A DNA stretch of 64,000 nt from Escherichia phage A4. Below, one piece after another: positions 15,440 to 64,000 of the stretch (position 1 is its first letter; each line of letters starts with the position of its first letter). The notes under the pieces are model-generated. The model did not search any database and was not told where the DNA came from. It saw only the letters and a program-made list of their open reading frames with translations. The stretch lies in sequence record ON286972; one strand, written 5' to 3'. A program made the position numbers and the translations under genes.

Positions 15440-15570
<131 letters not shown>

Positions 15571-15571
15571 T

Positions 15572-16006
<435 letters not shown>

Positions 16007-23255: not shown

Positions 23256-23320
23256 AAAACAAACCCCTCATTGTTGAAATGCTTATAAAATATTTATGAT
23301 AAGGAGGGTGAAAATCGGCC

Positions 23321-24984: not shown

Positions 24985-25048
24985 GTGAAGTGATAAGATA
25001 GTACCAATGAAACACAACACTAATTTATAATCTAATGAGGAACCAACC

Positions 25049-26372: not shown

Positions 26373-26426
26373 CATAAAATGTGTTAAGGGATATAATTAT
26401 TTTATCAAAACAAAGGAGGGACACAT

Positions 26427-26678: not shown

Positions 26679-26751
26679 GTACTTGACAGTACTGAAATAT
26701 AGGAGTACAATGTACTCCTACTTTAATTGAAAACCAAAAAGGAAAAACACA

Positions 26752-27027
26752 ATGAACTCTATTCTAGTAGCAGTAAACCTGGTTGCTTCTCCGTCTTTTG
26801 ATTTTAAAAAAGTTATTTCTAATAATCTTAAAAACATTTGCCCTGATACTGAACTTACTTTTTGTGTATTCGATTCTGAAAAAGTTACTAAAGTAGATCT
26901 TAATTATCTCATGAACGATGTTAAGAGTGTTCAAGGTAAAACTAATTTAGATGTAGTACGTTCTGTTGCTGACGACTACGATGATGCTCTGATCATTTCT
27001 GAATCTTTTGAAGAGGGTGTACTGTGA
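26752..27027 (+). CDS. hypothetical protein
   Basis: ATG ORF with AAAGG SD after TTGACA-N17-TACAAT. Confidence 0.55.
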   Translation: MNSILVAVNLVASPSFDFKKVISNNLKNICPDTELTFCVFDSEKVTKVDLNYLMNDVKSVQGKTNLDVVRSVADDYDDALIISESFEEGVL

Positions 27028-48170: not shown

Positions 48171-48503
48171 ATGATTAATTTATTTTCAACTGAGGTTATG
48201 ATTAAAATTACATTAGTATACATATGTCTATTCGTATACTACCACGCTCTCATCGGAATCTTGTGGTTCTTTAAGAAAGGTCGTATTCTTGAGAAATTGT
48301 ACCCAGACTATATGATATTGTATACAATTGTCCAGGGTGTAGGAATAGTACTGGGAATTCTAGTGCACTTGATATATTTGTTTGAACCACACCTTCCGTG
48401 TATTACACAATACATTGTATTCGGAACTACTATTATGTGGCTTGTAATGATGGGTGTGTATGGTCTGTATTTGTACAGGAAACGTATAGTGGGAGATTTC
48501 TAA
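48171..48503 (+). CDS. small multi-pass membrane protein, tandem array member 1
   Basis: ATG with GAGGAA SD; 3-4 hydrophobic helices. Confidence 0.55.
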   Translation: MINLFSTEVMIKITLVYICLFVYYHALIGILWFFKKGRILEKLYPDYMILYTIVQGVGIVLGILVHLIYLFEPHLPCITQYIVFGTTIMWLVMMGVYGLYLYRKRIVGDF

Positions 48504-48856
48504 TGCAAGAGGTTATTAAATGGTTGACAACCAGTGATATTGCTAGTACACTGAACTATGTACTCATTATCTTATATCCGTTTTTGATGGTTCTAAACTT
48601 CATTGGATGGTATTTCAAACGTCCAATTTACTACAAGATTAATAATTCAGAGTACTATGAAAGTGTTGTAATTGCAACCTCAATCACGTATACTATGGGT
48701 GCGGTTCTTACAGTCATAGGATTAGGTCAAGGTGATAATCTTAACTTTATGCTATGTACCTTTGTTATGATATGTATTCCAACACTAATTGTAATTCTAT
48801 CGAATATTGTGTGGAAAAAAATGTTATTTGCACGCAACAAAATACCGGAGGCATAA
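48503..48856 (+). CDS. small multi-pass membrane protein, tandem array member 2
   Basis: track ORF 48398..48856 trimmed to ATG overlapping upstream stop (TAATG). Confidence 0.5.
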   Translation: MQEVIKWLTTSDIASTLNYVLIILYPFLMVLNFIGWYFKRPIYYKINNSEYYESVVIATSITYTMGAVLTVIGLGQGDNLNFMLCTFVMICIPTLIVILSNIVWKKMLFARNKIPEA

Positions 48857-49191
48857 TGGAGTACTTTATCAGTTTACTACCGTGGTACTTGAAAGTAAGT
48901 ACAATTTACTACATCATTTCCGCTGGGTTTTATTTCTTGATGTGGTTCTTTAAACGTCCAATCAGTGAATTCATCGATAATCATATGATGAGTTTTAAAC
49001 TTCACTGCTGGTTTTGGTCATCGTCAGTGATGCCATTCATCCATTACGGAATTATCAGTACTGGTAAACGTTCTAATGGTGAAATCATTTCCTTGGGTTT
49101 TTACTGGATATCGACTATTGTTTACATTGGTGTGCTTTTGTATCCATTTGTAGTTAAACTACGAAACTCTATCCCAGATCACAGGAAATAA
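48856..49191 (+). CDS. small multi-pass membrane protein, tandem array member 3
   Basis: track ORF 48754..49191 trimmed to ATG overlapping upstream stop; FKRPI motif shared with member 2. Confidence 0.5.
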   Translation: MEYFISLLPWYLKVSTIYYIISAGFYFLMWFFKRPISEFIDNHMMSFKLHCWFWSSSVMPFIHYGIISTGKRSNGEIISLGFYWISTIVYIGVLLYPFVVKLRNSIPDHRK

Positions 49192-49192
49192 T

Positions 49193-49513
49193 ATGAAGAT
49201 TCAATTTATTCTTTTCACAGTAAGTGCATTCTACTTTTGGGTTTGCTGGATTGGTTTTCTCTTTGCACTAAAACCATTTGACTTCTATGCAAAGCAGTGT
49301 AAAAATGCTGCTGTTGGTAATGTAGCTTTTACATTGCTTAGTACATTATGGGTAGTACTGATTATATTCAATCCACCTGATAATGATTTGGAAATGTCAT
49401 TGTGTACATTATTTGCAGGACTGTGTGTATTCGCAGCATTCTGTAGTTATATTGGAAAGTTATGTTCTTTGGTATCAAATTTCCATCGTAAACAAAAAGA
49501 TAAGAGGGTATAA
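49193..49513 (+). CDS. small multi-pass membrane protein, tandem array member 4
   Basis: ATG ORF, hydrophobic. Confidence 0.5.
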   Translation: MKIQFILFTVSAFYFWVCWIGFLFALKPFDFYAKQCKNAAVGNVAFTLLSTLWVVLIIFNPPDNDLEMSLCTLFAGLCVFAAFCSYIGKLCSLVSNFHRKQKDKRV

Positions 49514-49896
49514 TGTACACAACAATATATGTTATTCTTAATATCCTAAGTGCATGTCTAACAATAGGTGCATTAATATACATTGGAAAGTTCTTTTGTG
49601 TAAAGTTCGTCGAAGATGTGTATGAGGATATTGAATCCGACTACGAATCTAAGTGCTTCTTCCATGTTGGATATATCATTTGCTTAGTAACCACTATCTT
49701 CACATGGATTGTATACGTATTCGGGATTGGAATCACTTCAATTGGTGAACCAGTACTGTGCATTATTGGATTAGTGTTTTCTTCAATATTCGGGTTATTG
49801 TTCATGATTATTCTTATGTATAATTTAATCTGTACTGCTATTGTTCCTTTCTTTTATGAAATTCACAATAACATTAAACGTAAGAAACGAGGTTAA
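49513..49896 (+). CDS. small multi-pass membrane protein, tandem array member 5
   Basis: TAATG overlap, hydrophobic. Confidence 0.5.
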   Translation: MYTTIYVILNILSACLTIGALIYIGKFFCVKFVEDVYEDIESDYESKCFFHVGYIICLVTTIFTWIVYVFGIGITSIGEPVLCIIGLVFSSIFGLLFMIILMYNLICTAIVPFFYEIHNNIKRKKRG

Positions 49897-49898
49897 TT

Positions 49899-50252
49899 AT
49901 GTTTTCTCCTGCTGGACAAGTTATATTCATGGTATGTACACTGGTATTCTTTATGTTGTCTGTACTATTTGTGATGAAATTCTTTCACATGAAACCATTC
50001 AGTACTTGGTATGATAATATTGTGTACTATATTGGTAATGCTATAACACTCTTTTCAGTTGCATACTATTTCGGTTATTTTGCAATGCTATTTGGGTTAT
50101 TACTTGAAGCTCGTGCATTGCTTGTAGCTGGTATGGTGGCAGATTTAATGTGTCTAACACTAGCTTGTATTGGATTTACTGTATGTATGTCGTTAACCAT
50201 TTTTGACAAATTATGTAAACTACACAAACGTTTAGGTGAGAGGATGAAATAA
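49899..50252 (+). CDS. small multi-pass membrane protein, tandem array member 6
   Basis: ATG ORF, hydrophobic. Confidence 0.5.
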   Translation: MFSPAGQVIFMVCTLVFFMLSVLFVMKFFHMKPFSTWYDNIVYYIGNAITLFSVAYYFGYFAMLFGLLLEARALLVAGMVADLMCLTLACIGFTVCMSLTIFDKLCKLHKRLGERMK

Positions 50253-50635
50253 TGACTTACCGTGATTACTTTTGTATTTTTGAAATTGCAGTATTCGCTT
50301 TAGGTTCAGTCTGGTTACTTCTATACTACTTCTGTATTAATCCAGTATTCAATTGGGTTCGTCGTGCTGAACAAAGTAGTGCTGGACAAATAGCAGTTGT
50401 TATGGGTATGACATATTATATGTTCGCCGTGGCTTCTGTTGTTATTGAAGTAATATTTGGTGGCATGAATGGTGATGATGGGGCAACGTTCTATGGATTC
50501 GTAACATTCTTTAGTGTGCTGATTCCGTGTGGTGCTCTTATTATTACTGCGTTCTATTGGCTATATCGTGGTGTTAAGAAGCTGGAATCAATTCACGTAG
50601 ATATGCGTTCAAAACGAATGGGGATTGACAAATAA
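50252..50635 (+). CDS. small multi-pass membrane protein, tandem array member 7
   Basis: TAATG overlap, hydrophobic. Confidence 0.5.
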   Translation: MTYRDYFCIFEIAVFALGSVWLLLYYFCINPVFNWVRRAEQSSAGQIAVVMGMTYYMFAVASVVIEVIFGGMNGDDGATFYGFVTFFSVLIPCGALIITAFYWLYRGVKKLESIHVDMRSKRMGIDK

Positions 50636-51186
50636 TGAAACGAAGTTCTAATGTCATTCGCGAACGATTTCGTAAAGTAAAAACTATTAAGTACGGGACT
50701 ATTGCTCTTGTACTTAGTAGTACTTTTATTATGACAGGATGTGAACGCTCTGAAGATATTTCTGTATATCAGAATGTGGACCAATGTAAAAGAAGTGGTA
50801 GCAATCCGGTACAGTGTGAAGATGATTATAAAAAAGCACTAACTGAATCGGAAAAGGTAGCACCAAAATATAGTTCACAAAGTGATTGCTCTAGTGATTT
50901 TGGTAATCAGTGTCAACAGCATAGCTCTGGATTCTTTTGGATGCCAATTATGAGTGGATTCCATAGTAGTGGTAATGGGTTTGCTAGTCAACCACTATAC
51001 AACTCTAAAGGGAACTACTATGATGCTGGTGGTAACTCCTACGGTAGCAGTACTGCAAAAGGTACAACACGTACTGTATCAAGTTCCGCATTAGCTCCAA
51101 AACCTCCTACAACGACCACAATCACCCGCAATGGGTTTGGGTCTTCAGTAGCCAGAAGTGCCGCTCACACGAGTTCTGGTGGATAA
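50635..51186 (+). CDS. putative lipoprotein with Gly/Ser/Thr-rich C-terminus
   Basis: signal peptide ...ALVLSSTFIMTGC with lipobox-like MTGC; ATGA overlap. Confidence 0.55.
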   Translation: MKRSSNVIRERFRKVKTIKYGTIALVLSSTFIMTGCERSEDISVYQNVDQCKRSGSNPVQCEDDYKKALTESEKVAPKYSSQSDCSSDFGNQCQQHSSGFFWMPIMSGFHSSGNGFASQPLYNSKGNYYDAGGNSYGSSTAKGTTRTVSSSALAPKPPTTTTITRNGFGSSVARSAAHTSSGG

Positions 51187-51189
51187 TAA

Positions 51190-51216
51190 AAAAGCCCACA
51201 TTAAGTGGGCTTTTTG
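51190..51216. terminator. bidirectional rho-independent terminator between convergent gene blocks
   Basis: hairpin AGCCCAC-ATTA-GTGGGCT flanked by AAAAA and TTTTT. Confidence 0.65.
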
Positions 51217-53241
51217 TTATTTGTGTTTTATGTGTAAAGTGTCTAATATTGTATTGAACAATGATTTAGCAGAAATCATGATTACTTGATCAAAATCTTT
51301 AGTATAAGAAATATTAGCAGTACTGGAAGAATCTTTCACCTCATCCGGTAATGCATCAAACTCTTCTTTTTCCATAATCTTTTCAAGTTCTTCACGAGAA
51401 ATGGCTTTTACGTTTTCAATAGTCCTTAGTTGTATATTATAATCTTTATAATACGAAACTAAGTTCGTTGCGTATGAACCATCTTTAGATGCTGTTCCAG
51501 TAAAATCATAACATCCTGTATCAGTACTAACCCAATCGATTTTCCCTGAACTACCACTATATACACCTTTGTTGAACTTAATGTTAACAACATCACCAAT
51601 AGTTTTCAATATACCACCTTTACATTCATTAAATGCGTTTAATTGATAACTTGTAGTCATATAGAATTTCGGTTCTAATGTAACAGTATCACCTACAGTT
51701 GCTTTCATATCAGAAACACTTAAGAACAATTCATTAAATCCTTTTGAATAAGTCTTGGTAATTGTTGTTCCATCCCTGTTAGTTACTGTGTATTCTAAGT
51801 CCAATTCACAAATACTATTCAATGATAAGTAAGGGATATCAAATTTATCAGTACTAGCATCATAAGGACATCTTGAGGATGGTAGTATACCAGTAGGGTT
51901 TGGTACGTATTGAACTTTTGTTAACTCATACCCGCTTGCATTCGCTGGTGTAACTGTAATAGACGGTGTAGATATTCCTTTCATTCCACAGAAGTATATG
52001 TTATCTGGAAAATCATTTATTACGAAGTCAGTGACAGGAATATCATAAGTATCTTTATCAGTCCAATTAAGAACAACATTAGAACTGGTTGGATCAACAA
52101 TATGTTCACTAGAACCACAGAAATATACTGATTTGGTATTAGTAATCATTAGTAATGTTTTGGATGATGAGTTCAATTCAAGAACATCTTTCACTTCAAG
52201 ACCAGATGGTAATGTCAATGGTAACTTCGTAAATGATGTTAAATCTTGTTCATCTTTAACACCACTAGTCCCCGCCGGAAACTTACCTGAACCATAGAAA
52301 ACACCTTTATTCGTCATGAAATACATGAACGGGGTTGATGTTCCTTTGTCAAATAGTTGAATGTCATCACATGTTAAACCATCAGGTAAATCCACTTTAG
52401 ATGGAGTTCTATAAACACCAGGCTTAATACCACCTTCACCATTACTTACATCACCTAGTACATATAAATCTTTACCTAGTTTCAAGAACATTGATTTATT
52501 TTTAGCACACAAGAATGTATCATATGATTTATCATCAATTGGTAGCTTGGTATATTCGGTGTATGTAGGCATTGAATCATCAATCCACGAACTATCACCA
52601 CTAATGTAAATGTGATTGTTTCTGTCAATATAATATGAATACACATCAGTACTGTTCATATATAAAGCATTTAGTGCATTTGTTTTCACTAAGTGATTGA
52701 ACTTAAGAACTTGTTTTCCATCGTACTTATGGGAGTTGACACCAATATCACCATTTAGGCTACTACCAATTGAATATATATGACCACGTGGTAATAGAAC
52801 TTGAACACCACTTTTGGTTAAATTATATTTGGAGTGCAAGAGATCGTTATATACAACTCTAACTTTCTTAAAGATATCAGTACATTCAATCCACGATTTA
52901 GATGGTGTACCATCCATTCCTATTATTGCCGGATCACCATAATAATAAGCTTTATTTTCATATGATATTTTAAAAGATGATTTACCATCTTTTGTATTAG
53001 CACTGAAGTACACATCTTTACTATCTTTAATTGGATAAGTACTATTCTCTACAAAAGTATTATATGAGATATCGTTGTTAGCACTATTAAGAACAAAAGA
53101 AGTAGATGTACTATTGGACTTATAGACTGCTACGGAAGATGTATCACTGAAATCAATTTTAGTGAACGTATCTTTGTATGTTTCGTTTAATAATCCTACA
53201 TAAAAAACATCAGTGCCATCCATCAGTAACGAATATAGCAT
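51217..53241 (-). CDS. large beta-propeller-like protein with RCC1-type motifs (array member 10, no MLPFVRM leader)
   Basis: 674-aa ORF; motifs such as KDLYVLGDVSNGEGG; start may be the in-frame ATG at 53223. Confidence 0.6.
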   Translation of the reverse strand: MLYSLLMDGTDVFYVGLLNETYKDTFTKIDFSDTSSVAVYKSNSTSTSFVLNSANNDISYNTFVENSTYPIKDSKDVYFSANTKDGKSSFKISYENKAYYYGDPAIIGMDGTPSKSWIECTDIFKKVRVVYNDLLHSKYNLTKSGVQVLLPRGHIYSIGSSLNGDIGVNSHKYDGKQVLKFNHLVKTNALNALYMNSTDVYSYYIDRNNHIYISGDSSWIDDSMPTYTEYTKLPIDDKSYDTFLCAKNKSMFLKLGKDLYVLGDVSNGEGGIKPGVYRTPSKVDLPDGLTCDDIQLFDKGTSTPFMYFMTNKGVFYGSGKFPAGTSGVKDEQDLTSFTKLPLTLPSGLEVKDVLELNSSSKTLLMITNTKSVYFCGSSEHIVDPTSSNVVLNWTDKDTYDIPVTDFVINDFPDNIYFCGMKGISTPSITVTPANASGYELTKVQYVPNPTGILPSSRCPYDASTDKFDIPYLSLNSICELDLEYTVTNRDGTTITKTYSKGFNELFLSVSDMKATVGDTVTLEPKFYMTTSYQLNAFNECKGGILKTIGDVVNIKFNKGVYSGSSGKIDWVSTDTGCYDFTGTASKDGSYATNLVSYYKDYNIQLRTIENVKAISREELEKIMEKEEFDALPDEVKDSSSTANISYTKDFDQVIMISAKSLFNTILDTLHIKHK

Positions 53242-54154
53242 TTCTATTATTACATAAAGAAGTAATATTTTTTACTACTTTATTTGAATTATAGTTTGGT
53301 AACTTCTTTAATCCACGAACAAAATTATCACAAATAATACCAGTACCATAGAAGTTATAATCTTTATCACAGTATATAAATGCTGTATCATATGGTGAAG
53401 TACTTAAATTCTTATAGAATGGGAATGGAGTGAATGTGAATTGTAGAACCTTACGCAATTCCCCTACTGTCTCTGTTGGGAATTGTCTGTTTTTATTATT
53501 ACCAATAAAAACAACTCTATCTGTTAGGAATGTGTACATAATTCCATATGGTTTTACGTACAAATCATTATATCCCAATGATAATTTAGTTGGTGATGTT
53601 AGTGGTCCTGAGTTTATTTTGGTTTGATTAATTGAAAACTCATTAGAATTATAACCAGCCCCATATGTATTACCATTAGTACTTAAATAATATACAGTAG
53701 CTTCCCCTGCTCCAAGAAAAGTCTTTACATCAGTTGCTAACGTTTTTTGGAAAGTTGGATAAAATTTATTATATGTTCCCGTTCCCATCATCAGTTCACC
53801 ATTGCGGTTATGACCACGAGCATATAGAATACCTTTGTCTGTATCTAAGAAGAACATACCATTATATGTTTTGTAAATCTTACCTTTTGTAATATCGAAA
53901 TTGGAAAAATCATCACTAATATCAATGAATATTGTCTCAAGATTATCTTCAAGGGAGTTTAGAGATTTACCACAATACCATACTGAGTTATCTTTTTTAA
54001 CAGCAACACAACCACACGGACTGGCATCAAAATATGTTACATCGGAAAGAACCAGAGATAAGTTCTTTGTACTGCAATAGTTATCCATTGCATATAAATC
54101 GGAATCTTTAAGTATATATACGGAATTCCCAACCGCTTTAATCGAATTTATCAT
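53210..54154 (-). CDS. RCC1-like beta-propeller protein (array member 9, no MLPFVRM leader)
   Basis: track ORF starts TTG at 54244; trimmed to ATG (MINSIK) after GAGGA SD; motif GILYARGHNRNGELMMG. Confidence 0.55.
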   Translation of the reverse strand: MINSIKAVGNSVYILKDSDLYAMDNYCSTKNLSLVLSDVTYFDASPCGCVAVKKDNSVWYCGKSLNSLEDNLETIFIDISDDFSNFDITKGKIYKTYNGMFFLDTDKGILYARGHNRNGELMMGTGTYNKFYPTFQKTLATDVKTFLGAGEATVYYLSTNGNTYGAGYNSNEFSINQTKINSGPLTSPTKLSLGYNDLYVKPYGIMYTFLTDRVVFIGNNKNRQFPTETVGELRKVLQFTFTPFPFYKNLSTSPYDTAFIYCDKDYNFYGTGIICDNFVRGLKKLPNYNSNKVVKNITSLCNNRNAIFVTDGWH

Positions 54155-54373
54155 GTTTATATCCTCATAAATTGATACCAATTCTAATGTATTTACCCAC
54201 TTAAAGTACAAAAAATGATCAATTAAATGGGGAATCTTTAACAAATGAATTCATGATGTACTTGATGAATTGCCCATACCAACGGATTCCTCAGTCCCAG
54301 CATACCACATGGTATTATCGAACTTTTTATCATTGTAGTATCATAACCACACCAAACATCATCAACATTAGTA

Positions 54374-55726
54374 TTACAACAATTGTATTTCTGTGAGTGT
54401 TTGATATGTTGTACCGTTGTACACACCTCTCCAATATACCCTACCTTCAGTACTAACCACTAATAATCCATATGTTGTAAACCCAAGAGTACCACCAACA
54501 TACATAGCATCTTTAATTCGAATACCAATGTCTTCATATGTAAATGAAGCGACTGCTCCCGCTTGCCACGAAGGACTAGCGTAGTAATCACTATAAACAC
54601 CATGTGCTTTATATATTGATGTTGTTCCTGGTTCAAAAATTACAGTTCCACAGTAGTTCATTCGTATTTTAGTACTGGATGAAGTCGGTACATTTATACC
54701 TATGCCATCTTTTATCCCTGTAGTTAGGACGTTAAAACCACCCGCCACACGGTTGACGTCATTCTCACCGATTAAAAACATACCAACGTTGTAGCCCATA
54801 TAATATACACTGCTACTGCCATTCCAGAAAGAAAAACCACCACCATTACCACAGCGATATAGTTGTGAATTTGAGCAGTACATCATACCTTCGTTTGTCG
54901 CATCAAATTCATCTGCTGTTCCTATTGTAGCTACAGTAGTCCACGTTTTAATCACTTGGTTTGTACTAGCTGGTGTTTGTATACCATATCGTATATTATA
55001 TCCCTTACCAACGATTGTACCATCTTCTAATTTAGCATAAAGTACAGGTCTATTACCAACAAAATACATATTATTGTGTGACATGTCTATTGTGCATCTT
55101 AATGAAACTACTTTTTGTGTCAATTGATTATCTTTAGTAAAAGAAGTAAAGTAGTAATCCGATGTTGAGTTGTTTATTAAACCTTGTATTGACAATCCCA
55201 TATACCAGATTTCACCATTGCTGTTTAATGCTGCCAAAATACAACTATATTTTGAAGTGTATGCTGGTGATGTTGTTGAAGTTGCTGGTCCTTTATCATA
55301 TCCACCACAGAATACCATCTCCACAACTTCACCTACGTTCGAAAAATAAGAAGATACATTGATAAAACCATTTGTTATAAAAGGTGCTGTATTCATACTT
55401 GAATGTGTGAATATCCCATTTGCATATACACCACAAAAATGATATGAACCATCATTATCTTGGACTATTATTCCATTTGATAGTAACCAAAAATTGTTTA
55501 CATTTTTTCTTACTAATTCAACTCCTGCACCATTGGTTGGTGTTATACCAAAAGAAACATATTTTGTTTGACCAATACCATATAAATTTCCATTAGTTGC
55601 TAGTATTGCACCAAACCAGTTCCCACCACCATTCCTATCATGACCCATACCAATGGAGTCAAATTTCTTCACAGTAGGGACTTCAACTTTATTCCCATAC
55701 TCTAGCATTCTAACAAAAGGTAACAT
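54374..55726 (-). CDS. RCC1-like beta-propeller protein with MLPFVRMLEYGN leader (array member 8)
   Basis: SD AGGAGG then ATG MLPFVRMLEYGNKVEVP; motif GNLYGIGQTKYVSFG. Confidence 0.7.
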   Translation of the reverse strand: MLPFVRMLEYGNKVEVPTVKKFDSIGMGHDRNGGGNWFGAILATNGNLYGIGQTKYVSFGITPTNGAGVELVRKNVNNFWLLSNGIIVQDNDGSYHFCGVYANGIFTHSSMNTAPFITNGFINVSSYFSNVGEVVEMVFCGGYDKGPATSTTSPAYTSKYSCILAALNSNGEIWYMGLSIQGLINNSTSDYYFTSFTKDNQLTQKVVSLRCTIDMSHNNMYFVGNRPVLYAKLEDGTIVGKGYNIRYGIQTPASTNQVIKTWTTVATIGTADEFDATNEGMMYCSNSQLYRCGNGGGFSFWNGSSSVYYMGYNVGMFLIGENDVNRVAGGFNVLTTGIKDGIGINVPTSSSTKIRMNYCGTVIFEPGTTSIYKAHGVYSDYYASPSWQAGAVASFTYEDIGIRIKDAMYVGGTLGFTTYGLLVVSTEGRVYWRGVYNGTTYQTLTEIQLL

Positions 55727-55801
55727 ATATCCTCCTTTATTCATTATATTATATTTAATCAAAAAAGAAAAGCCAGTACAGAGTACTGGCATTTAAAATA
55801 A
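55727..55801 (-). repeat. conserved intergenic cassette (terminator hairpin GCCAGTAC...GTACTGGC + T-run, AT-rich TATAAT-containing promoter-like segment, AGGAGG SD)
   Basis: minus-strand reading TTTAAATGCCAGTACTCTGTACTGGCTTTTCTTTTTTGATTAAATATAATATAATGAATAAAGGAGGATAT-ATG; recurs 6 times. Confidence 0.65.
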
Positions 55802-56977
55802 TCAAAATGTAGGAAGTTTGAATTCTCTCATAACAGATGAACTGCTTGCAGATACATTATCTGGTGATTTCCCTGCGTAGTATAATTTATTATCAATGAA
55901 CATATACAATGTTGCATCATTTCCTGCTACAAGTGATTCACTTTTCTTAAATTTAACACCACTAGGTAAAATTGCTTCAACAAATGAACCTGATTCTCTT
56001 GTAGTATTATTTGCCAATTGACCATTGTTATTATAACCAGTACTATAAATTTTACCTGAACTATAATATACGAGTCCACGAGTACTAGTGTTTTCTATTC
56101 GAATGAATTCACTATCATCTGGGACTGTAGTTGATAGAACTGGGTTTAACTTATAAGCAGATGATACATTATTATTACCCAATTGACCATAACCTTGAAA
56201 GCCTAGTGTATACATAGGACATGATTCTGGTGTGCCTTTTGTTATAATACCAATATAATTCACACTACAAAAAATGTCTATTGCTTCTGTAATAGGTGTA
56301 CCCTTATATTGAACCCAAGGGAATACATACGATTGTTGCTTACCATTTCCCAAAGTACCGGAAGTTGTTGTCCCAGTACGCCACATTGTATCATCAAGTT
56401 TAATAATCCAGTTAGCTGTCGTTATCGATGAACAGAATTTTTTAACATTATCCACTAAAAATGTAAATTGATTATAATATGATGCAGTGTTTATACCAAA
56501 CTTAGCACCAGTATTATCACCTAACAAATATAAACTATTATCTGTACCTAAAATCAAAGCATAATCATAACCCACGTATATATCTTTAATTCTTGAAATT
56601 CCAAATTGTGTAAAATAGCTTGTACATTCTGTGAATGTTGTTATATTATTGGTTGTATTATTACCTAGCCATTTATCTAAACCACTATAAAAGAATCTAT
56701 CATCATTTGTGCGTATTAGACAAAAAGCGTTCATTGTACTGCACCAAAAATCTTTAACATTGCTATATATTTTTGTCCATTCAGTTACTGCATTAGTATG
56801 ACCTAAACCAAAAATTCCACCATTCTGAAGACCAATAGCCCATATTGAACCATTTTTATCAAGCATCATTGTACATGTATGTGAATAACCACCCGATGGT
56901 GTAACTAATTTAACAAAATTGGGAATATATGGTAAAACTTTATTTCCATAATCCAACATTCTAACAAAAGGTAACAT
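55802..56977 (-). CDS. RCC1-like beta-propeller protein with MLPFVRMLDYGN leader (array member 7)
   Basis: SD AGGAGG + ATG; motifs GSIWAIGLQNGGIFGLG, GKIYSTGYNNNGQLANNT. Confidence 0.7.
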   Translation of the reverse strand: MLPFVRMLDYGNKVLPYIPNFVKLVTPSGGYSHTCTMMLDKNGSIWAIGLQNGGIFGLGHTNAVTEWTKIYSNVKDFWCSTMNAFCLIRTNDDRFFYSGLDKWLGNNTTNNITTFTECTSYFTQFGISRIKDIYVGYDYALILGTDNSLYLLGDNTGAKFGINTASYYNQFTFLVDNVKKFCSSITTANWIIKLDDTMWRTGTTTSGTLGNGKQQSYVFPWVQYKGTPITEAIDIFCSVNYIGIITKGTPESCPMYTLGFQGYGQLGNNNVSSAYKLNPVLSTTVPDDSEFIRIENTSTRGLVYYSSGKIYSTGYNNNGQLANNTTRESGSFVEAILPSGVKFKKSESLVAGNDATLYMFIDNKLYYAGKSPDNVSASSSSVMREFKLPTF

Positions 56978-57048
56978 AATTCCTCCTTTATTCATTATAC
57001 TATATTTAATCAAAAAAGAAATGCCAGCATCAAGTACTGGCATTATTG
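56978..57048 (-). repeat. conserved intergenic terminator/promoter/SD cassette
   Basis: hairpin ATGCCAG...CTGGCAT + T-run + ATATAGTATAATGAATAAAGGAGG. Confidence 0.6.
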
Positions 57049-58239
57049 TTATAGTTGTCTTGGTGTATCAAGTACATATCTATTTGTACTAGGACCACCA
57101 TCATCATACGTTCCGGTTGAATATATATTTTTCATATCAGCAGTTAGAAAAGTACGATACGAACCGCGATATATTTTTATTTTATCATACATAGAATATG
57201 ATATTTCTGCTGGCATTGGACATATAGTAAATCTACCAATAGTAACATTAGAACCAACACCCAACGAACCAGCATAACTACTCGCATTTAAACCAGTTGC
57301 ATATACACCAGTACTCGTAACTAGTATACTAGATTGTGTTGGGTATCCTGTATGAATTGAATACAAAGTTCCAGTTGGTAATGTCGTACTATTGCTCCCT
57401 AATACAGCAAGTGCCGAACTGGTTGTGGTATTGTTACCCCATGCACCATTACTCGCTAAACCACCAACTAGAAACTGACGTGCACCAGTACTTGGATTCT
57501 CAACCAAAGCACTGACTGCACCACTTGAGCATCCAGTGTATTGTAACGTTTTTGTGTATGTTGTACTTGGTTTATATAAAGTATATTCATTAAATGGTGT
57601 CCATGTGGTACTGGTACTTATACCTGACGTACCACCACCAATATATAAATTATTTTGTGTATCAAAAAACATTACACAGTTATTTGTTGACTGTATTTGT
57701 GCAATATCAACATTAGGCGTGACAGCTTTTACAAATGATCCATCTGTTATTTGTTGAGTACTACCAGTACCATCAGCGAATTGTCTAGCCCCACTCCAAC
57801 CAGTACTCCATATTGTATTATTATCCATTAATACCGTAAACCACGTAGTACCTCCATACATCTGTTTAATTGAAGTACTTGAACTTTGCGTGTACAAATT
57901 TTCAATATATTGGTTATAACTTAAAAACGTAGTAGTACTAGTTGGTAAACCAATATGATCACCATATCCACAATAAAAATAATTTGAGTCATTATCTTGT
58001 ACTAACAAAGTTCCTTGTGACACCCAGAAATCTTTAACATTTTCTCTAATTAAGGTCCATGACTTTACTGCATTACTATTTCCTATACCAAACTTCCCAA
58101 AACTATTATTTCCACGTGCGTATAGTTGACCATCCGTATAAAGAACGACAACATCTAAATCAGTTGGTGTTATTTTCTTAATTTGAATAGGGACTGGTGT
58201 TATATTCCCATAATCAAACATTCTAACAAAAGGTAACAT
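57049..58239 (-). CDS. RCC1-like beta-propeller protein with MLPFVRMFDYGN leader (array member 6)
   Basis: SD GGAGGG + ATG; motif GQLYARGNNSFGKFGIG. Confidence 0.7.
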   Translation of the reverse strand: MLPFVRMFDYGNITPVPIQIKKITPTDLDVVVLYTDGQLYARGNNSFGKFGIGNSNAVKSWTLIRENVKDFWVSQGTLLVQDNDSNYFYCGYGDHIGLPTSTTTFLSYNQYIENLYTQSSSTSIKQMYGGTTWFTVLMDNNTIWSTGWSGARQFADGTGSTQQITDGSFVKAVTPNVDIAQIQSTNNCVMFFDTQNNLYIGGGTSGISTSTTWTPFNEYTLYKPSTTYTKTLQYTGCSSGAVSALVENPSTGARQFLVGGLASNGAWGNNTTTSSALAVLGSNSTTLPTGTLYSIHTGYPTQSSILVTSTGVYATGLNASSYAGSLGVGSNVTIGRFTICPMPAEISYSMYDKIKIYRGSYRTFLTADMKNIYSTGTYDDGGPSTNRYVLDTPRQL

Positions 58240-58310
58240 ATTTCCCTCCTTTATTCATTATACTATATTTAATCAAAAAAGAAAAGCCAGTATCAAGTAC
58301 TGGCCTATAT
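58240..58310 (-). repeat. conserved intergenic terminator/promoter/SD cassette
   Basis: same cassette family (GCCAGTACTTGATACTGGC hairpin). Confidence 0.6.
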
Positions 58311-59480
58311 TTAAACTGGTGAATCTAATACAAATTCTAAACTACTAATGCCACCATATGTGACATTTGTCCCTGTGCTATATACAAAATTACCATCAGT
58401 TATATAAGTTCGGTTATACCCACCTGCCATCTGCGACTTACTATAATCAAACCCATCAGGAACGATTGCTTTGGTATATACTAATGCATTATTAGATGTA
58501 CCAATACCTAACATACCAGCTCCTGAAGATTTATTGTAGCCGCAACAATATATACCATCTGTTGTAGCAATAACTTGGTTATAATATGAAGTAATGTTAG
58601 CAATGCTTACTACATCACCGGGTGGCATTAGTGAAGCAGTTTGAACCTCAAATGCTCTATAATCACTGAGAGAACCATTTATCCCATCTGCTTGTGCACC
58701 AAATATTCTCGAACCGCCATTTGCGATGATGGTTTTACCAGTGGGATCAGTACCAATTGCCATTGCCATTGAAGTACTATTCTCCATATAGTACTTGATA
58801 TTAATTGTATTTCTTAAGCTGGTAGGAGCACCATAATATATAGTATATAACTTACCTCCTGAACTTGTAACTGCATTTACTCTTCCTGTATAAAATAGCC
58901 ATCCTTGGTTTGTAACATAACCGTGCATTAAATTACTTGCAAACAATTTAACAGGTAATTGATCTGCTGCGGTCGGAACAGTACTTTTGACGAATTTTCT
59001 AGCAACATTGTTAGTTGTTGTCCCATCACCCAACTGACCATCACCCCCTGCTCCAGTACTCCATATTGTTTGGTCTGTTAGTAATACACTTGTAGTCTGA
59101 TAACTAACTGCTATATCTAATATTGGTAATGTTAACGTATCGAATGTTGGCATAGCAGAAGTCCATATTGATACTGCTGCCCCTGGCATACCAACAGTTG
59201 TTGAACTTCCACTGTACCATATTTCATCATTGCTTTTCTTAATAACTATCGACGTGGCTCCCATCCAAAAATCTTGAACATCAGAAGTGCTAAAAGTCCA
59301 TGTAGTAACAATATTTTTGTGACCTAAACCCAAAAGACCATTTGTATTCTCACCACGCACATATAAATCACCACTGTTTGTTAAAACAGCAACATTATAG
59401 TTGTTAGCTAGTATTTTTTTAATATTTGGTTTAGCAGGTGCAATATTCCCATACTCTAACATTCTTACAAAAGGTAACAT
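58311..59480 (-). CDS. RCC1-like beta-propeller protein with MLPFVRMLEYGN leader (array member 5)
   Basis: track ORF extends upstream into cassette; trimmed to SD-proximal ATG; motif GDLYVRGENTNGLLGLG. Confidence 0.7.
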   Translation of the reverse strand: MLPFVRMLEYGNIAPAKPNIKKILANNYNVAVLTNSGDLYVRGENTNGLLGLGHKNIVTTWTFSTSDVQDFWMGATSIVIKKSNDEIWYSGSSTTVGMPGAAVSIWTSAMPTFDTLTLPILDIAVSYQTTSVLLTDQTIWSTGAGGDGQLGDGTTTNNVARKFVKSTVPTAADQLPVKLFASNLMHGYVTNQGWLFYTGRVNAVTSSGGKLYTIYYGAPTSLRNTINIKYYMENSTSMAMAIGTDPTGKTIIANGGSRIFGAQADGINGSLSDYRAFEVQTASLMPPGDVVSIANITSYYNQVIATTDGIYCCGYNKSSGAGMLGIGTSNNALVYTKAIVPDGFDYSKSQMAGGYNRTYITDGNFVYSTGTNVTYGGISSLEFVLDSPV

Positions 59481-59550
59481 AATTCCTCCTTTATTCATTA
59501 TATTATATTTAATCCAAATAAGAAAGCCAGTATCAAGTACTGGCATTGTG
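59481..59550 (-). repeat. conserved intergenic terminator/promoter/SD cassette
   Basis: same cassette family. Confidence 0.6.
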
Positions 59551-60660
59551 TTATTTCGGTAAATCAATTTTAGTAAAGACTGCAACATCCTCGCTTGCAC
59601 CGGGAATGGCGTAATACGTTCCAGTACTATATACATCTCCATTTTTGGTTAATATTGAAGTCAAACCATCACTAAAAAGAACATCCCTAATCTCACTAAC
59701 TTCAACGGGTAATTGTAAATTTGTAGCACTATATATAGCACCAGTTTGAGAATTGTTTAATCCCAAACCACGGTTCGCCCCAACACCCTTCTGATATGTA
59801 CTGGTAATTACCATTTGTGTAGCAGTATTTAATGCAGGTGAATTCGTCATAAACAACGGAGAACTATTAGGCAAAGTACTTACAGGAACTGCACGGAATG
59901 TAGTCGTACCTGAACTAAGAAAGTTTGGAGTTTGACCACATACGAAATATGATGTACCATTATAGTAATTAAATGCATTACCACCAATCGCTGCATCGAT
60001 TACACCAGAACTACGTAATCCCCAAGTGTTAATTTGTGTTTGGTCCCCTGTACCATGCTGCCCACTGCTATTCCATCCAGAACTATATAGCTTATTATCT
60101 AATGTAATATACATACTATCATTTGCATTAGTCATTACTTTACGCACGTTAGTAGCACATTGAGTTAATGTGTAAATCGATGATGAGCCAATACCTAAAG
60201 AACCACGATATCCATTATCTCCTGCACCATAGAGTACTGAACTAGTGCTAAGTACAAATATTAAACCATTTGTACATACAATATTAGCAATTTCACTCAC
60301 TGGTATAGCATTGGTAAACCAATTAGTCCTTTCAACTAATATAGTACTGTAAGAAGTAGTTGTAGAAGATGAGAACCAGTACGTTTCACCCGATGTCCAT
60401 ATCGTATTATCATTTTTAATAATAACAAGTGTACGACCACCCACGAAAAAATTAGAAACATCTGAACTTACTAATATCCATGAAGATACCGTGTTGTTAT
60501 TACCATTTCCAGATTCACCACCTTGATTTCTACCTATGTAATATAAATCATGTGAATCAGTCAATAAGAATTGACCCTGTGTAGAAGCACCAACTTTAAT
60601 TATATTTTTAGGACCGGGTACAATATTCCCGTACACTAACATTCTTCCAAAAGGTAACAT
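59551..60660 (-). CDS. RCC1-like beta-propeller protein with MLPFGRMLVYGN leader (array member 4)
   Basis: SD AGGAGG + ATG; motifs HDLYYIGRNQGGESGNG, NKLYSSGWNSSGQHGTG. Confidence 0.7.
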   Translation of the reverse strand: MLPFGRMLVYGNIVPGPKNIIKVGASTQGQFLLTDSHDLYYIGRNQGGESGNGNNNTVSSWILVSSDVSNFFVGGRTLVIIKNDNTIWTSGETYWFSSSTTTSYSTILVERTNWFTNAIPVSEIANIVCTNGLIFVLSTSSVLYGAGDNGYRGSLGIGSSSIYTLTQCATNVRKVMTNANDSMYITLDNKLYSSGWNSSGQHGTGDQTQINTWGLRSSGVIDAAIGGNAFNYYNGTSYFVCGQTPNFLSSGTTTFRAVPVSTLPNSSPLFMTNSPALNTATQMVITSTYQKGVGANRGLGLNNSQTGAIYSATNLQLPVEVSEIRDVLFSDGLTSILTKNGDVYSTGTYYAIPGASEDVAVFTKIDLPK

Positions 60661-60733
60661 AATTCCTCCTTTATTCATTATACTATATTTAATACAAAAA
60701 AGAAAAGCCAGTACTCTGTACTGGCATATTACA
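60661..60733 (-). repeat. conserved intergenic terminator/promoter/SD cassette
   Basis: same cassette family (GCCAGTACAGAGTACTGGC hairpin). Confidence 0.6.
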
Positions 60734-61876
60734 TTATTTCCACGGTAGAAGTGAATCAGGAACTCTGGTTGGTACTCTAACGGCTGGAACATTTCCAAGT
60801 TCAGGTAAACCACTCATATACAAATTGTTATTTTCATCAATTATCATTGAATAGAAATTATCAATTACGAAGCCTGAAATTCGTCTTCCTTCTAATGCAT
60901 CAAGAACCATTTCGGTGAAAGTTAGTATATTTTCGGATGTTTGATTAACACCACATGCACCATAGGTATTTCGACCACAAGTATATAACTTATTATTATT
61001 TTTAACAACACATCCATTCCCTTCGTTGTTGGATAAACCACCCACCAACTCTATTTCACCTTGGAATGATAAATTGGGAATTAATGTACTCATTGGTACT
61101 GCTGATACTGTACCTACACCAGCTTGACCATATGCATTTGGTGAAGCAACCTTCACTGAACCATCATTAAGAAATATATATGAAGTACGGTATGTATTTA
61201 CAGCTTGTATAGCATTGGTGATAGTATTGTCTTTTGTAAAACTTAATATATTTGATGTTTTTGTACTACCAGGAGCAACAGTATTTCCTGCATACCAATA
61301 GGAGCCATCATCAAGTACTAACCCAGTACTGAGCAAAGAACAGCCATAACTTTTAACATTTTCTATAGTGCTGTATCTGAACGATGTGACATTAGCTGTT
61401 GACGCGTTACCAAATACACCACCTTCGCCAGAACCACAGTAGAACCATTTTCCATTTTTTAAAAATACACGCAAATTCTGCCCAACAGCAATACCATCAA
61501 TATCATCAGCACTGACACCAAAATCAGTGAAGTACTGGGTTACATCAATCCAAACCCCATTTGTATTTGTTCCGATTTGTGGCATTACTATACTAGCACC
61601 TGTGAACCAAATAGTTCCATCATTCTTAATGGCAATGGAACCAAGAACACCACCCCAGTAACGTTCAATATTATTATTCACACGGGTCCATACGGTGGAT
61701 GATTGTAATGAACCATTACCACCTTGTCCAAATGAAGATGAACCATACCAGTACAAGTCACCATTAACATGCAAATAAAAACGAGTATTATAATTTGCTT
61801 GTAATCTATTTTTAAATAGAGGTTTTGGTTCCGGTGCAATATTCCCGTACTCTAACATTCTAACAAAAGGTAACAT
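60734..61876 (-). CDS. RCC1-like beta-propeller protein with MLPFVRMLEYGN leader (array member 3; near-duplicate of member 2)
   Basis: 380 aa; N-terminus MLPFVRMLEYGNIAPEPKP and C-terminus ...VPTRVPDSLLPWK shared with 61949..63091. Confidence 0.75.
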   Translation of the reverse strand: MLPFVRMLEYGNIAPEPKPLFKNRLQANYNTRFYLHVNGDLYWYGSSSFGQGGNGSLQSSTVWTRVNNNIERYWGGVLGSIAIKNDGTIWFTGASIVMPQIGTNTNGVWIDVTQYFTDFGVSADDIDGIAVGQNLRVFLKNGKWFYCGSGEGGVFGNASTANVTSFRYSTIENVKSYGCSLLSTGLVLDDGSYWYAGNTVAPGSTKTSNILSFTKDNTITNAIQAVNTYRTSYIFLNDGSVKVASPNAYGQAGVGTVSAVPMSTLIPNLSFQGEIELVGGLSNNEGNGCVVKNNNKLYTCGRNTYGACGVNQTSENILTFTEMVLDALEGRRISGFVIDNFYSMIIDENNNLYMSGLPELGNVPAVRVPTRVPDSLLPWK

Positions 61877-61948
61877 AATTTCCTCCTTTATTCATTATAC
61901 TATATTTAATACAAATAAGAAATGCCAGTACTCTGTACTGGCATTATA
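61877..61948 (-). repeat. conserved intergenic terminator/promoter/SD cassette
   Basis: same cassette family. Confidence 0.6.
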
Positions 61949-63091
61949 TTATTTCCACGGTAGAAGTGAATCAGGAACCCTTGTCGGTACATTTGTAGTA
62001 GACACCCCATCAAGATTTGGTACACCGCATGTATATAAATTATCAGCATCGTCAACTAACATCGTATAGTTATATCCCCTACAAAAACTACTAACATTAC
62101 GACCTTCTAATGCAGTAAGAATCATTTCAGTGAATGTTGTTATATTTGTCGAGGTTGAACCAACACCACATTGTCCATTTGAATTAAGACCACATAAAAA
62201 TAACTTATTATCATTTTTAATTATACAGGATGGTCCAGTAAGGTTTGTACCAAGCTCACCCACTAACTCTATTTCACCTTGGAATGCTAAATTTGGAATT
62301 AATGTACTCATAGGGGCTGGTGTTGTATTCCCAGTACCTGCTTGACCACGTTCGTTGGAAGATGCAACTTTAACTGTTCCATCACTAAGAAATATATAGG
62401 AAGTTTCAATTGTATTGACTGCTTTAATTGCAGTGCTGATAGAAGTTTCTTGTGTAAATCTTAGCACGTTTTGTGCTGACGTTCCCGATATAAACGTATT
62501 ACCTGCATACCAATATGTACCATCATTGAGTACTAATGCAGTACTTCGAATTGCACAACCAGCACTTCGAACATTTTCTATAGTACTGTACGTGAATTGT
62601 GAAACGCTTGCCGATGAACCATTTCCGAATACACCACCACTCCCAGCACCACAGAAGAACCACTTTCCATTTTTCAAAAATACACGCATACACGCAGATA
62701 TAACAATACTATCAATATCATCAGCACTGACACCGAAATCAGCAAAGTGCGATGTCACATCAACCCAAACACCGTTAGTGTTTGATGCAATTACTGGAAT
62801 AACAGAACTTGTACCAGTGTACCAAATAGTACCATCTTTCTTTATCGCTATTGTTCCTTGAACACCACCCCAATATCGTACAACATTTGTATTGACGAGA
62901 GTCCATGCGGTTGAAGAGTTCAATGAACCATTACCACCTTGACCATATGATGAAGAACCAAACCAATATAGATTACCATTGGTGTGTAAATAAAATTTGG
63001 CATCTGCCGAGCATTGTAACCTATTTTTTAATCGTGGTGCGGGTTCCGGTGCAATATTCCCGTACTCTAACATTCTAACAAAAGGTAACAT
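61949..63091 (-). CDS. RCC1-like beta-propeller protein with MLPFVRMLEYGN leader (array member 2)
   Basis: 380 aa; motifs GNLYWFGSSSYGQGGNG, NKLFLCGLNSNGQCGVG; only 12 bp (GGAGG SD) after upstream gene. Confidence 0.75.
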   Translation of the reverse strand: MLPFVRMLEYGNIAPEPAPRLKNRLQCSADAKFYLHTNGNLYWFGSSSYGQGGNGSLNSSTAWTLVNTNVVRYWGGVQGTIAIKKDGTIWYTGTSSVIPVIASNTNGVWVDVTSHFADFGVSADDIDSIVISACMRVFLKNGKWFFCGAGSGGVFGNGSSASVSQFTYSTIENVRSAGCAIRSTALVLNDGTYWYAGNTFISGTSAQNVLRFTQETSISTAIKAVNTIETSYIFLSDGTVKVASSNERGQAGTGNTTPAPMSTLIPNLAFQGEIELVGELGTNLTGPSCIIKNDNKLFLCGLNSNGQCGVGSTSTNITTFTEMILTALEGRNVSSFCRGYNYTMLVDDADNLYTCGVPNLDGVSTTNVPTRVPDSLLPWK

Positions 63092-63103
63092 AATTCCTCC
63101 ATA

Positions 63104-64000
63104 TTATTTAAAAACATACTGCGTATTAACACGAGTGCCATTGTCAAAACCAAGTACATAAAATATCTCAGCACTATTCTTAGAACCAAATAACGCACCA
63201 GTACTACTACTCAAAGTAGTATTAACCGCTAAGGGAATCCATATGTCTTCTTCTGCATCGTATCTCAATAAATTTAATGCACCATACGACACTGCATATA
63301 TATTTTTATCATATGTACTGTAACATATTTTACTAGGGTTATTACCACCAACTGGTGCTATGTTAGACCACACCGCACTTTGTATATGATATTTTTGTGC
63401 AGTACTAGTACCTTGACCAGTAATATATATGTAAGTACCATCCGTACACATATCACCACCTCCATTGTTATTTGTTCCATCACTTGTACCTAATGATGAC
63501 CATGTATTAGTACTTGGAGTATAACTGTATAACGAATTATTAGTAGGCGAACCCCACAAATATATCTTATCCCCAGCAGTAATCATCTTACTATACGCCA
63601 GTTGACTAGGCTTCCCAATACTGTTAGTGTTCAGAATCCATGTATTTGTACTTATATTATATACATAAAAATTATTACTACTATTACCTGAACCACCAAA
63701 CAAATATATTTTTCCCTGATAAGCACATAACGCACTACCAAATGTAGATACAGGTGCATTGGCTAATTGTGACCACGTTCTTGTAGTTAAATTAAAACTC
63801 CATAACTGATTATCCGTCTGCACCGCATTCTGTATACCACCAAATATATAAGCAATATTACTTTCCGCATCATACGTATAACCAAAGTTATTTCGTGCTG
63901 AAGGTACTGGTGATGTAGTAAATTGTGTTCGTACTCCACCATTTGGGCCAGGTAATGGACCTACATTCCCGAACTCAAACATTCTTACAAAAGGTAACAT
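63104..64000 (-). CDS. Kelch-like beta-propeller protein with MLPFVRMFEFGN leader (array member 1)
   Basis: start codon is the last 3 nt of the window; repeated ...TNTW/TRTW... blade motifs (STNTWILNT, STNTWSSLG, TRTWSQLA). Confidence 0.7.
   Translation of the reverse strand: MLPFVRMFEFGNVGPLPGPNGGVRTQFTTSPVPSARNNFGYTYDAESNIAYIFGGIQNAVQTDNQLWSFNLTTRTWSQLANAPVSTFGSALCAYQGKIYLFGGSGNSSNNFYVYNISTNTWILNTNSIGKPSQLAYSKMITAGDKIYLWGSPTNNSLYSYTPSTNTWSSLGTSDGTNNNGGGDMCTDGTYIYITGQGTSTAQKYHIQSAVWSNIAPVGGNNPSKICYSTYDKNIYAVSYGALNLLRYDAEEDIWIPLAVNTTLSSSTGALFGSKNSAEIFYVLGFDNGTRVNTQYVFK

Follow-up and report, generated by a model that had tools for sequence, protein, structure and literature searches.

The capsid-targeting sequence (CTS) of phage T4 reads MKTYQEFIAE. 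Together with the anchors of phage fibres and tailspikes and of the adenovirus fibre, it illustrates a principle that is already well known, in which variable bodies carry one constant peptide at the N-terminus for anchoring or targeting. In T4, the peptide of about 10-12 residues stands at the N-terminus of IPI, IPII, IPIII and Alt, and the IP locus of T-even phages is polymorphic (PMC3012670). Here we describe an arrangement of this kind in a 64,000-nucleotide (nt) stretch of Escherichia phage A4 (sequence record ON286972; hereafter the window), where eight genes of one array begin with a common 12-residue leader in front of divergent bodies. The same leader heads proteins of four body types, is kept in distant phages, and marks proteins that are enriched in the published virion proteomes of relatives.

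The array resembles the T4 system in several respects. Otherwise unrelated proteins have nothing in common but a short N-terminal peptide, the locus is variable and comprises multiple genes, its proteins have been found in virions by mass spectrometry (MS) of relatives, and a prohead core and protease of the T4 type are present in the lineage. In contrast, the leader consensus M[LI]PFxR[MI]hxYGN bears no resemblance to the T4 peptide, no conserved [L/I]-x-E prohead-protease site follows the leader, and its bodies are neutral, beta-rich binding folds of 20-50 kDa rather than small basic proteins. Fibre and tailspike anchors, such as those of RaK2 gp526-534, likewise combine a constant N-terminus with a variable, exchangeable binding part and with several bodies per site, and the tail motif FNPVYPY of the adenovirus fibre docks into the penton base. 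However, an anchor domain of a phage usually comprises 30-150 residues as opposed to about 12 in the array, and fibres contain trimeric beta-helices and shafts whereas the models predict monomeric globular propellers and lectins for the leader bodies. The inner-body and ejection proteins of phiKZ and SPN3US are also paralogous virion families of jumbo phages, and their N-termini are thought to direct incorporation into the head. Their propeptides are long and removed at S/A/G-X-E sites, while no such motif is conserved in the leader, and the lineage is unrelated. Finally, the array bodies share a fold (seven-bladed model, profile matches) with the eukaryotic proteins RCC1, UVR8, HERC2 and RPGR, although the phage proteins lack a chromatin-binding tail, are near-neutral and contain few charged residues. 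A literature search covering motif strings, RCC1 in Asteriusvirus, and papers on phAPEC6, CBB, Sharanji, XacN1 and comparative jumbo-phage genomics returned no description of the leader. Relative to this literature, the new elements are the 12-residue motif, the range of about 120 protein clusters and four folds over which it is found, and the concerted evolution of the leaders.

Searched with a degenerate DNA pattern encoding MLPF(V/G)RM, the window gave exactly eight matches, always on the minus strand, where 0.01 matches were expected from 100 shuffles. The matches coincide with the eight starts named in the original prediction, which had proposed a near-invariant module of 12-17 residues in front of divergent propeller bodies. 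Near-invariance extends over residues 1-12, which follow the pattern MLPF[V/G]RM[L/F]x[Y/F]GN among the eight genes, while residues 13-17 are only semi-conserved ([I/V/K][A/V/T/G]P.P). The four 17-residue sequences originally listed are all present, and three further leader types are MLPFVRMLEYGNIAPAK, MLPFVRMLDYGNKVLPY and MLPFVRMLEYGNKVEVP. The bodies are indeed divergent, with 16-29% identity between paralogues from residue 18 on and a single pair at 64%, but "propeller" is too narrow a description given that relatives' bodies include non-propeller folds. According to Pfam, six leader-gene bodies are RCC1-like; the body of gene 54374-55726 matched RCC1 via a PHROG profile only, and that of gene 63104-64000 is a Kelch propeller, not RCC1. 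Matches to PF00415 and PF13540 exceeded the gathering cut-offs in most paralogues (exceptions: 54374-55726 and 57049-58239), and the match to PF25390 fell below its cut-off. Array bodies contain about 12% charged and 40% S/T/N/G residues at an isoelectric point (pI) of about 6, compared with 26% charged and 23% S/T/N/G in the other open reading frames (ORFs) of the window; calculated from composition only, their pI ranges from 5.3 to 8.0 and their charged fraction from 10 to 15%. Region 54000-64000 has patchy 85-96% identity to Asteriusvirus jumbo coliphages of about 350 kb (121Q, PBECO4, phAPEC6, G17 and others), and no single record covers more than 48% of it. By this comparison, the array is one of the variable parts of a Rak2-like jumbo phage genome.

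A leader shared in this way could be an artefact of mis-called starts, and the sequences upstream of the genes speak to the contrary. An AAGGAGG ribosome-binding site lies 4-6 nt before the leader-gene ATGs (GGAGG only in gene 61949-63091), and aligning the upstream regions revealed a near-identical intergenic cassette in front of six genes. The cassette consists, in order, of a G+C-rich hairpin GCCAGTACnnnGTACTGGC, a T-run with a terminator-like score, the element ATTAAATATA(G/A)TATAATGAATAAAGGAGG, 4-6 nt and the ATG. This element contains a -10-like TATAAT plus the Shine-Dalgarno (SD) site. Because SD sites precede the ATGs and the same cassette stands upstream of six genes, these ATGs are genuine starts. 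Longer ORF calls (e.g., MPVLDTGF...IKYNIMNKGGIMLPF) are the stop-free cassette read in frame, and in GenBank the start of phAPEC6 gp002 is placed about 36 codons upstream, within the cassette. Although gene 61949-63091 is without a cassette, GGAGGAATT-ATG and the leader are retained, and the gene probably shares a transcript with the upstream Kelch gene. A sigma-70 scan found no convincing -35 for the cassette TATAAT, and promoter-like sites were no commoner than in shuffles. Folding the ribosome-binding site plus the first 40 nt gave -5.3 kcal/mol (z = +1.1), that is, an unstructured initiation region, and we rejected the leader as an RNA-level element on this ground. Within the whole window, the cassette motif is confined to the array. 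Dozens of short same-strand ORFs fill positions 1-48000 (+), none with the motif, and these ORFs seem to form a transcription class distinct from that of the array.

The leader is not tied to any one body fold. We found it on four body types: the RCC1 propeller, the Kelch propeller, a ConA/LamG lectin and a glycine-rich domain. When Pfam was applied to 115 clusters matched by a profile of the N-terminus (described below), 101 were RCC1-like, 3 were Kelch, and the remainder were of other types. Carriers with a Laminin_G_3/ConA body (PF13385) include ENKO_515c, GAP32_002, Hallingskeid CDS0082 and CBB_548, 549, 551 and 553; the lectin-type carriers belong to phrog_6011, labelled "virion structural protein", and LamG bodies match domains within giant virion and baseplate proteins. 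Gly_rich_2 bodies (PF21722) occur in ENKO_525c, 121Q gp243 and one unannotated phAPEC6 gene.

AlphaFold2 modelled gene 60734-61876, with an alignment of 41 paralogues as input, as a confident seven-bladed RCC1 propeller (predicted local distance difference test (pLDDT) 91.7, predicted template modelling score (pTM) 0.89). Residues 1-20 of this model are coil with a pLDDT of 50-63 (below 50 at residues 6-8), the first strand spans residues 25-28, and the propeller runs from about residue 24. In the model of the LamG-type CBB_549 (pLDDT 89, pTM 0.85), residues 1-10 form a detached short helix with a pLDDT of 56. Both models are compact single domains, a propeller and a jelly-roll, and not a trimeric fibre or beta-helix. 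Profile matches to the solved structures of UVR8 and RCC1 reached E = 1e-46 to 1e-26. Since the family's most conserved segment is the one least determined by its own fold, the leader behaves in these models as a short linear motif that would bind something else. It does not look like an export signal, which had been suggested: a reading of the leader for Sec, Tat and lipoprotein signals found neither a hydrophobic run nor a lipobox, and instead Arg6 and a polar or charged position 9.

We next consider how far the peptide is conserved. Leader-headed genes number 11-12 in phAPEC6, 11 in 121Q and 12 in G17. Klebsiella phage fENko-Kae01 has 12 in the form MIPF[ATS]R[ILM]..Y[GA]N, Erwinia phage Hallingskeid has 10, Pectobacterium phage CBB has 9, and Cronobacter phage GAP32 has 2 in the stretch examined. 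From these genomes, the leader is spread over Rak2-like jumbo phages of Escherichia, Klebsiella, Erwinia, Cronobacter and Pectobacterium, and Xanthomonas phage XaC1 carries a diverged form, MFPIP[IV]IS.YGN. To reach beyond named phages, we searched a 30-position hidden Markov model (HMM) of the N-terminus against 1.84 billion cluster representatives (E <= 1e-3). It matched 127 representatives of 195-460 amino acids (aa), nearly all from residue 1, and 124 of these contain M[LIFV]PF within their first 60 residues. Among the 124, residue counts at positions 1-6 were M124, L65/I58, P124, F124, A76/V28/G11 and R122, and at positions 7-12 M75/I40, L64/V25/I15/F14, variable, Y122, G120 and N123. The resulting consensus is M-[L/I]-P-F-[A/V/G]-R-[M/I]-[L/V/I/F]-x-Y-G-N, in which seven residues (M1, P3, F4, R6, Y10, G11 and N12) are fixed or nearly so. 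Position 9 was E in 41 clusters, K in 36, N in 12, Q in 11 and D in 8, among others, with S and T also occurring. The leader is therefore conserved in relatives, at residue 1 in about 120 clusters. With no conserved Glu in the 124 clusters and no other cleavage motif, we rejected a T4-type cleavage site after the leader, and a processing site of any kind, another early suggestion, is unlikely.

Distant phages use several codons for the fixed residues: Pro is CCA 15, CCT 5 and CCG 4 times, Arg is AGA 12, AGG 10 and CGT 1 times, Tyr is TAC 12 and TAT 11 times, Phe is TTT or TTC, and all four Gly codons occur. Because these phages keep the residues while varying synonymous codons, selection appears to act on the leader peptide and not on DNA alone. 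The MLPF leader was absent from the terminal tailspike array of RaK2, where we looked for it. That tailspike/depolymerase array (gp525-534, local coordinates 12765-35683) has two conserved N-terminal types of its own, M.N.LIQPKGSVSKE... in gp526, 527, 529 and 530, and MSLSNLS.SN... in gp531-534. In the Vequintavirinae, three RCC1 paralogues of phage W70 (local 6001-9499) begin MLEM[L/M]NL[G/S], and lectin-type proteins of phage 4MG (local 5953-6603 and 10936-11589) begin MEEMLLVG and MLEAMLTAG. The Vequintavirinae thus have another common N-terminus in front of the body types seen here, which suggests that the design of a leader plus a variable binder reaches beyond the MLPF peptide.

Annotation of the array in relatives is imperfect. 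In the GenBank record of phAPEC6 (1-15657), gp004 was called in the wrong frame over a 244-aa Gly_rich_2 leader gene, annotation is missing for two full-length paralogues (12115-13224 and 8405-9595), and the record ends duplicate each other, such that gp550/551 equal the record start and gp001. Several paralogues of 121Q are split or truncated in gp234-240 (local 22123-23302 and 24463-26944), where gp240 is a 68-aa leader-bearing stub followed by gp239; the array accumulates frameshifted copies.

Leader type follows the genome rather than the gene. The body of gene 60734-61876 is 99% identical to 121Q gp247 and phAPEC6 gp001 and 98% identical to G17_75, whereas its leader differs from theirs at 3 of 12 residues (121Q, phAPEC6) or 4 of 12 (G17_75). 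At the DNA level, its first 36 nt contain 6-7 differences, against 1.5-1.9% in the other 1104 nt (P = 6e-5 to 8e-7). Two more orthologue sets display the same contrast. Across all sets, bodies are 93-99% identical while leaders differ at 3-4 of 12 residues, and divergence is 14-19% in the first 36 nt but 1.5-4.3% over the remainder of each gene (P = 8e-3 to 8e-7). All eight leaders of the window have V/G5, L/F8 and E/D/V9, and almost all of those in 121Q, phAPEC6 and G17 have A/G5, V/I/M8 and K/N/R9; none of these three was a complete genome of the acidic type. V5 and an acidic position 9 tended to occur together in the metagenomic set (Fisher P = 2e-8, uncorrected for relatedness). The same upstream cassette is present in genomes of both leader types, and cassette plus leader provide about 100 nt of homology between paralogues that is usable for gene conversion. 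This tracking of genome over gene is concerted evolution.

Mass spectrometry of virions had been suggested as a check, and published data exist for relatives. Table 1 of the phAPEC6 study lists gp003, 005, 006, 007, 009, 010, 549 and 551 among 62 virion proteins (PMC7247149). All eight begin with the leader, so that 8 of the 11 annotated leader proteins were detected as opposed to 54 of 540 others (Fisher P = 2e-6). CBB virions contained CBB_536, 537, 548, 549, 551, 552 and 553 at 9.5-51% coverage (PMC5259590), or 7 of 9 leader proteins (P = 2e-6). The supplement of the same study reports GAP32_001, 530 and 531 as MS-positive, which makes 3 of 4 for GAP32. Leader proteins are thus enriched in three virion proteomes, and virion association is found in phAPEC6, CBB and GAP32 alike. 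Peptide counts of RCC1 members were low, which suggests a low copy number per particle.

The explanation that we favour, tentatively, is that the leader is a fold-independent peptide that docks to a shared component and thereby carries small proteins of a binding type into the virion. Conservation, occurrence on four folds, a position outside the fold and enrichment in virions all agree with the constant targeting or attachment module of the original prediction, while we infer attachment itself, and with it the docking partner, the location and an adhesin role. None of the findings that would have overturned that prediction, namely mis-called starts, proteins unconnected with virions or a peptide absent from relatives, was made. 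Under this explanation, the leader would dock single-domain bodies of a ligand-binding type onto a common phage component. Each array gene would form its own expression unit of terminator, promoter-like element, strong ribosome-binding site and leader. Gene conversion through the cassette and leader would keep one leader type per genome, the type that fits its own docking site, even as the bodies diversify. The modules would sit on the particle exterior, in the tail, baseplate or fibre apparatus, as accessory adhesins, and competition for limited sites would leave each at low copy.

We prefer an external location over the head interior because homologues of the lectins and propellers occur inside giant fibre and baseplate proteins, because low charge, high S/T/N/G content and a pI near 6 are unlike DNA-embedded internal proteins, and because RaK2, which has no leader, carries a multi-tailspike array at the same genome end. 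Fibre and adhesin proteins exposed on phage particles typically have such a low-charge, S/T/N/G-rich composition. Composition data also argue against a DNA-binding "condensation" role, and the database name "DNA condensation protein" given to relatives derives solely from the RCC1 fold. A further-reaching possibility, which we regard as doubtful, is that the leader alone suffices to load any protein on or in virions and that the array is a diversifying "binder library". With many propeller and lectin modules competing for few docking sites, particles would carry random subsets in a form of bet-hedging of adhesion, host range or counter-defence. Gene conversion would again keep each lineage's leader type matched to its docking site, and the MLEMLNLG-like leader of the Vequintavirinae would stand for a second such system, independent of the first.

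Several observations weigh against the favoured explanation. The preference for the exterior draws on composition and on the usual roles of the body folds, and the authors of the phAPEC6 study proposed the head interior (inner body) for the RCC1 proteins (PMC7247149). A search of solved structures matched only eukaryotic RCC1-like proteins and no phage particle entry. In the fENko-Kae01 preparation, which was ultrafiltered and not gradient-purified, the glycine-rich CDS_525 yielded 17 spectra and other members were weak: three RCC1 members had 2-3 spectra each and eight leader proteins were absent. Co-purification is possible, as virion proteomes also list the non-structural proteins RecA, SSB and thymidylate synthase. 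The switch in leader type could be the neutral outcome of gene conversion, with no co-evolving partner behind it, and the invariance of synonymous sites in the leader within Asteriusvirus fits DNA-level homogenisation too.

Incorporation into the virion does not by itself decide the destination, and the leader may direct its carriers to the head interior, as the T4 CTS or the propeptides of phiKZ and SPN3US do. The paralogues would then be loaded into the prohead core as inner-body or DNA-coejected proteins, such as anti-defence binders. The architecture is that of the T4 CTS, in which unrelated bodies from a polymorphic locus share a constant N-terminal peptide of about 10 residues; a prohead core protease of the T4 type is encoded (phAPEC6 gp227c, CBB_255); phAPEC6 has an inner body of unassigned composition, for which its authors proposed RCC1 proteins; and the virion MS evidence fits equally. 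We nonetheless judge this destination, the main rival to our explanation, unlikely. The leader has no sequence similarity to the T4 peptide, its position 9 varies (E, K, N, Q, D, S, T), and neither a conserved Glu nor [L/I]xE follows it. Near-neutral, charge-poor, S/T/N/G-rich bodies are unlike basic DNA-embedded internal proteins, rigid 40-kDa propellers would presumably have to unfold to exit through the tail tube, and external fibre and baseplate proteins repeatedly contain lectin and propeller folds. Less probable still is that the leader acts inside the infected cell, as an amphipathic membrane element, a chaperone or protease (Clp) recognition signal or an assembly handle between paralogues, with detection in virions reflecting incidental co-purification of abundant late proteins. 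The weak helical character of the leader in the CBB_549 model would be in keeping with such a role, as would the small membrane proteins and DUF1190 protein that adjoin the array here and in CBB, the contaminants that proteomes contain, and the barely detectable RCC1 members of fENko-Kae01. Yet enrichment is strong in three independent virion proteomes, with several CBB members at 25-51% coverage. The crude fENko-Kae01 preparation was rich in cytoplasmic proteins and RCC1 members were nevertheless rare, which argues against plain contamination, and a 12-residue leader with Arg6 and a polar position 9 is no transmembrane or signal segment.

The leader might instead have no function as a peptide, its codons being conserved inside a cassette of about 100 nt by gene conversion or by selection on translation initiation. 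Within Asteriusvirus, the first 21 nt are near-invariant, synonymous sites included, the upstream cassette is near-identical across copies and genomes, leader type goes with the genome, not with the gene, and the unstructured initiation region (z-score +1.1) is expected of a strong translation start. Against this, the leader is kept without the cassette in gene 61949-63091, phAPEC6 gp003 and gp009, and most genes of fENko-Kae01, Hallingskeid and CBB. Distant genera keep the amino acids while codons vary, and differences between genomes are mostly non-synonymous and fall at positions 5, 8 and 9 while the seven residues stay fixed or nearly fixed. We therefore consider it very improbable that the peptide has no role. 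In many RCC1 and Kelch propellers a strand from the N-terminus completes the ring, and the leader, which directly precedes the first repeat, could be such a "velcro" strand closing the last blade. However, the modelled propeller is complete from about residue 24 with residues 1-20 left as low-confidence coil, the same leader occurs on lectin and glycine-rich bodies, and the RCC1 paralogues of the Vequintavirinae have an unrelated N-terminus. The AlphaFold2 model and the non-propeller carriers led us to reject the strand, which is close to excluded.

If the leader is a docking peptide for virion incorporation, it would explain why jumbo coliphages keep 10-14 "RCC1" genes, which carry a DNA-condensation annotation taken over from the fold, and why Kelch, lectin and glycine-rich proteins appear in virion proteomes. 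It would also explain the array's place among the most variable parts of otherwise similar genomes. Genome-specific leader types, with an acidic or a basic position 9, would be a built-in genetic handle for finding the docking partner, and the leader would offer a short portable handle for display or packaging of foreign proteins in jumbo phages, as the CTS does for T4.

Table 1. Coordinates of the leader-gene array, its leaders (codons 1-12), the leaderless neighbours and the upstream cassettes in the window.
Feature	Coordinates	Strand	Description
Leader-gene array, eight genes	54374..64000	-	From gene 54374-55726 to gene 63104-64000
Leader MLPFVRMLEYGN	55691..55726	-	Gene 54374-55726; body 450 aa, RCC1-like by PHROG only
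Leader MLPFVRMLDYGN	56942..56977	-	Gene 55802-56977; RCC1-like propeller
Leader MLPFVRMFDYGN	58204..58239	-	Gene 57049-58239; RCC1-like propeller
Leader MLPFVRMLEYGN	59445..59480	-	Gene 58311-59480; RCC1-like propeller
Leader MLPFGRMLVYGN	60625..60660	-	Gene 59551-60660; RCC1-like propeller
Leader MLPFVRMLEYGN	61841..61876	-	Gene 60734-61876; RCC1-like propeller (modelled with AlphaFold2)
Leader MLPFVRMLEYGN	63056..63091	-	Gene 61949-63091; RCC1-like propeller
Leader MLPFVRMFEFGN	63965..64000	-	Gene 63104-64000; Kelch propeller; start codon is the window's last three bases
Leaderless RCC1-like ORF and out-of-frame RCC1-blade remnant	53210..54244; 54245..54373	-	Without cassette
Leaderless 674-aa protein	51217..53241	-	RCC1-like domain at residues 152-380; C-terminal extension of about 290 aa, type unassigned
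Cassette	55731..55790	-	Hairpin GCCAGTACnnnGTACTGGC and T-run 55772-55790; ATTAAATATA(G/A)TATAATGAATAAAGGAGG 55731-55759
Cassette	56982..57044	-	Hairpin 57020-57044; promoter-like/SD 56982-57010
Cassette	58245..58306	-	Hairpin 58284-58306; promoter-like/SD 58245-58273
Cassette	59485..59544	-	Hairpin 59526-59544; promoter-like/SD 59485-59513
Cassette	60665..60725	-	Hairpin 60707-60725; promoter-like/SD 60665-60693
Cassette	61882..61945	-	Hairpin 61921-61945; promoter-like/SD 61882-61910

As shown in Table 1, two genes distal to the array are related to it by fold. Both had been described as lacking the leader, and their sequences bear this out. Directly upstream of ORF 53210-54244, a fragment resembling an RCC1 blade, NVDDVWCGYDTTMIKSSDNTMWYAGTEESVGMGNSSSTS up to a stop, lies in another frame. 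Because of this out-of-frame fragment and the missing expression signals, the ORF looks decayed and is probably a paralogue that has lost its 5' end. The start of gene 51217-53241 overlaps the end of the preceding ORF. Inside the array, a 148-aa ORF lies antisense within gene 61949-63091 (62415-62861, +); it is without signals and most likely spurious. Beyond the leaderless genes, positions 48171-50635 (+) encode six tandem paralogues of a small multi-pass membrane protein, followed by a DUF1190 protein at 50635-51186 (+; Pfam E = 4e-32). This block (48171-51186) is convergent with the leader array, and a bidirectional terminator-like hairpin (51189-51215) lies between them. An equivalent block of membrane proteins and DUF1190 (CBB_538-547) also flanks the leader array of phage CBB.

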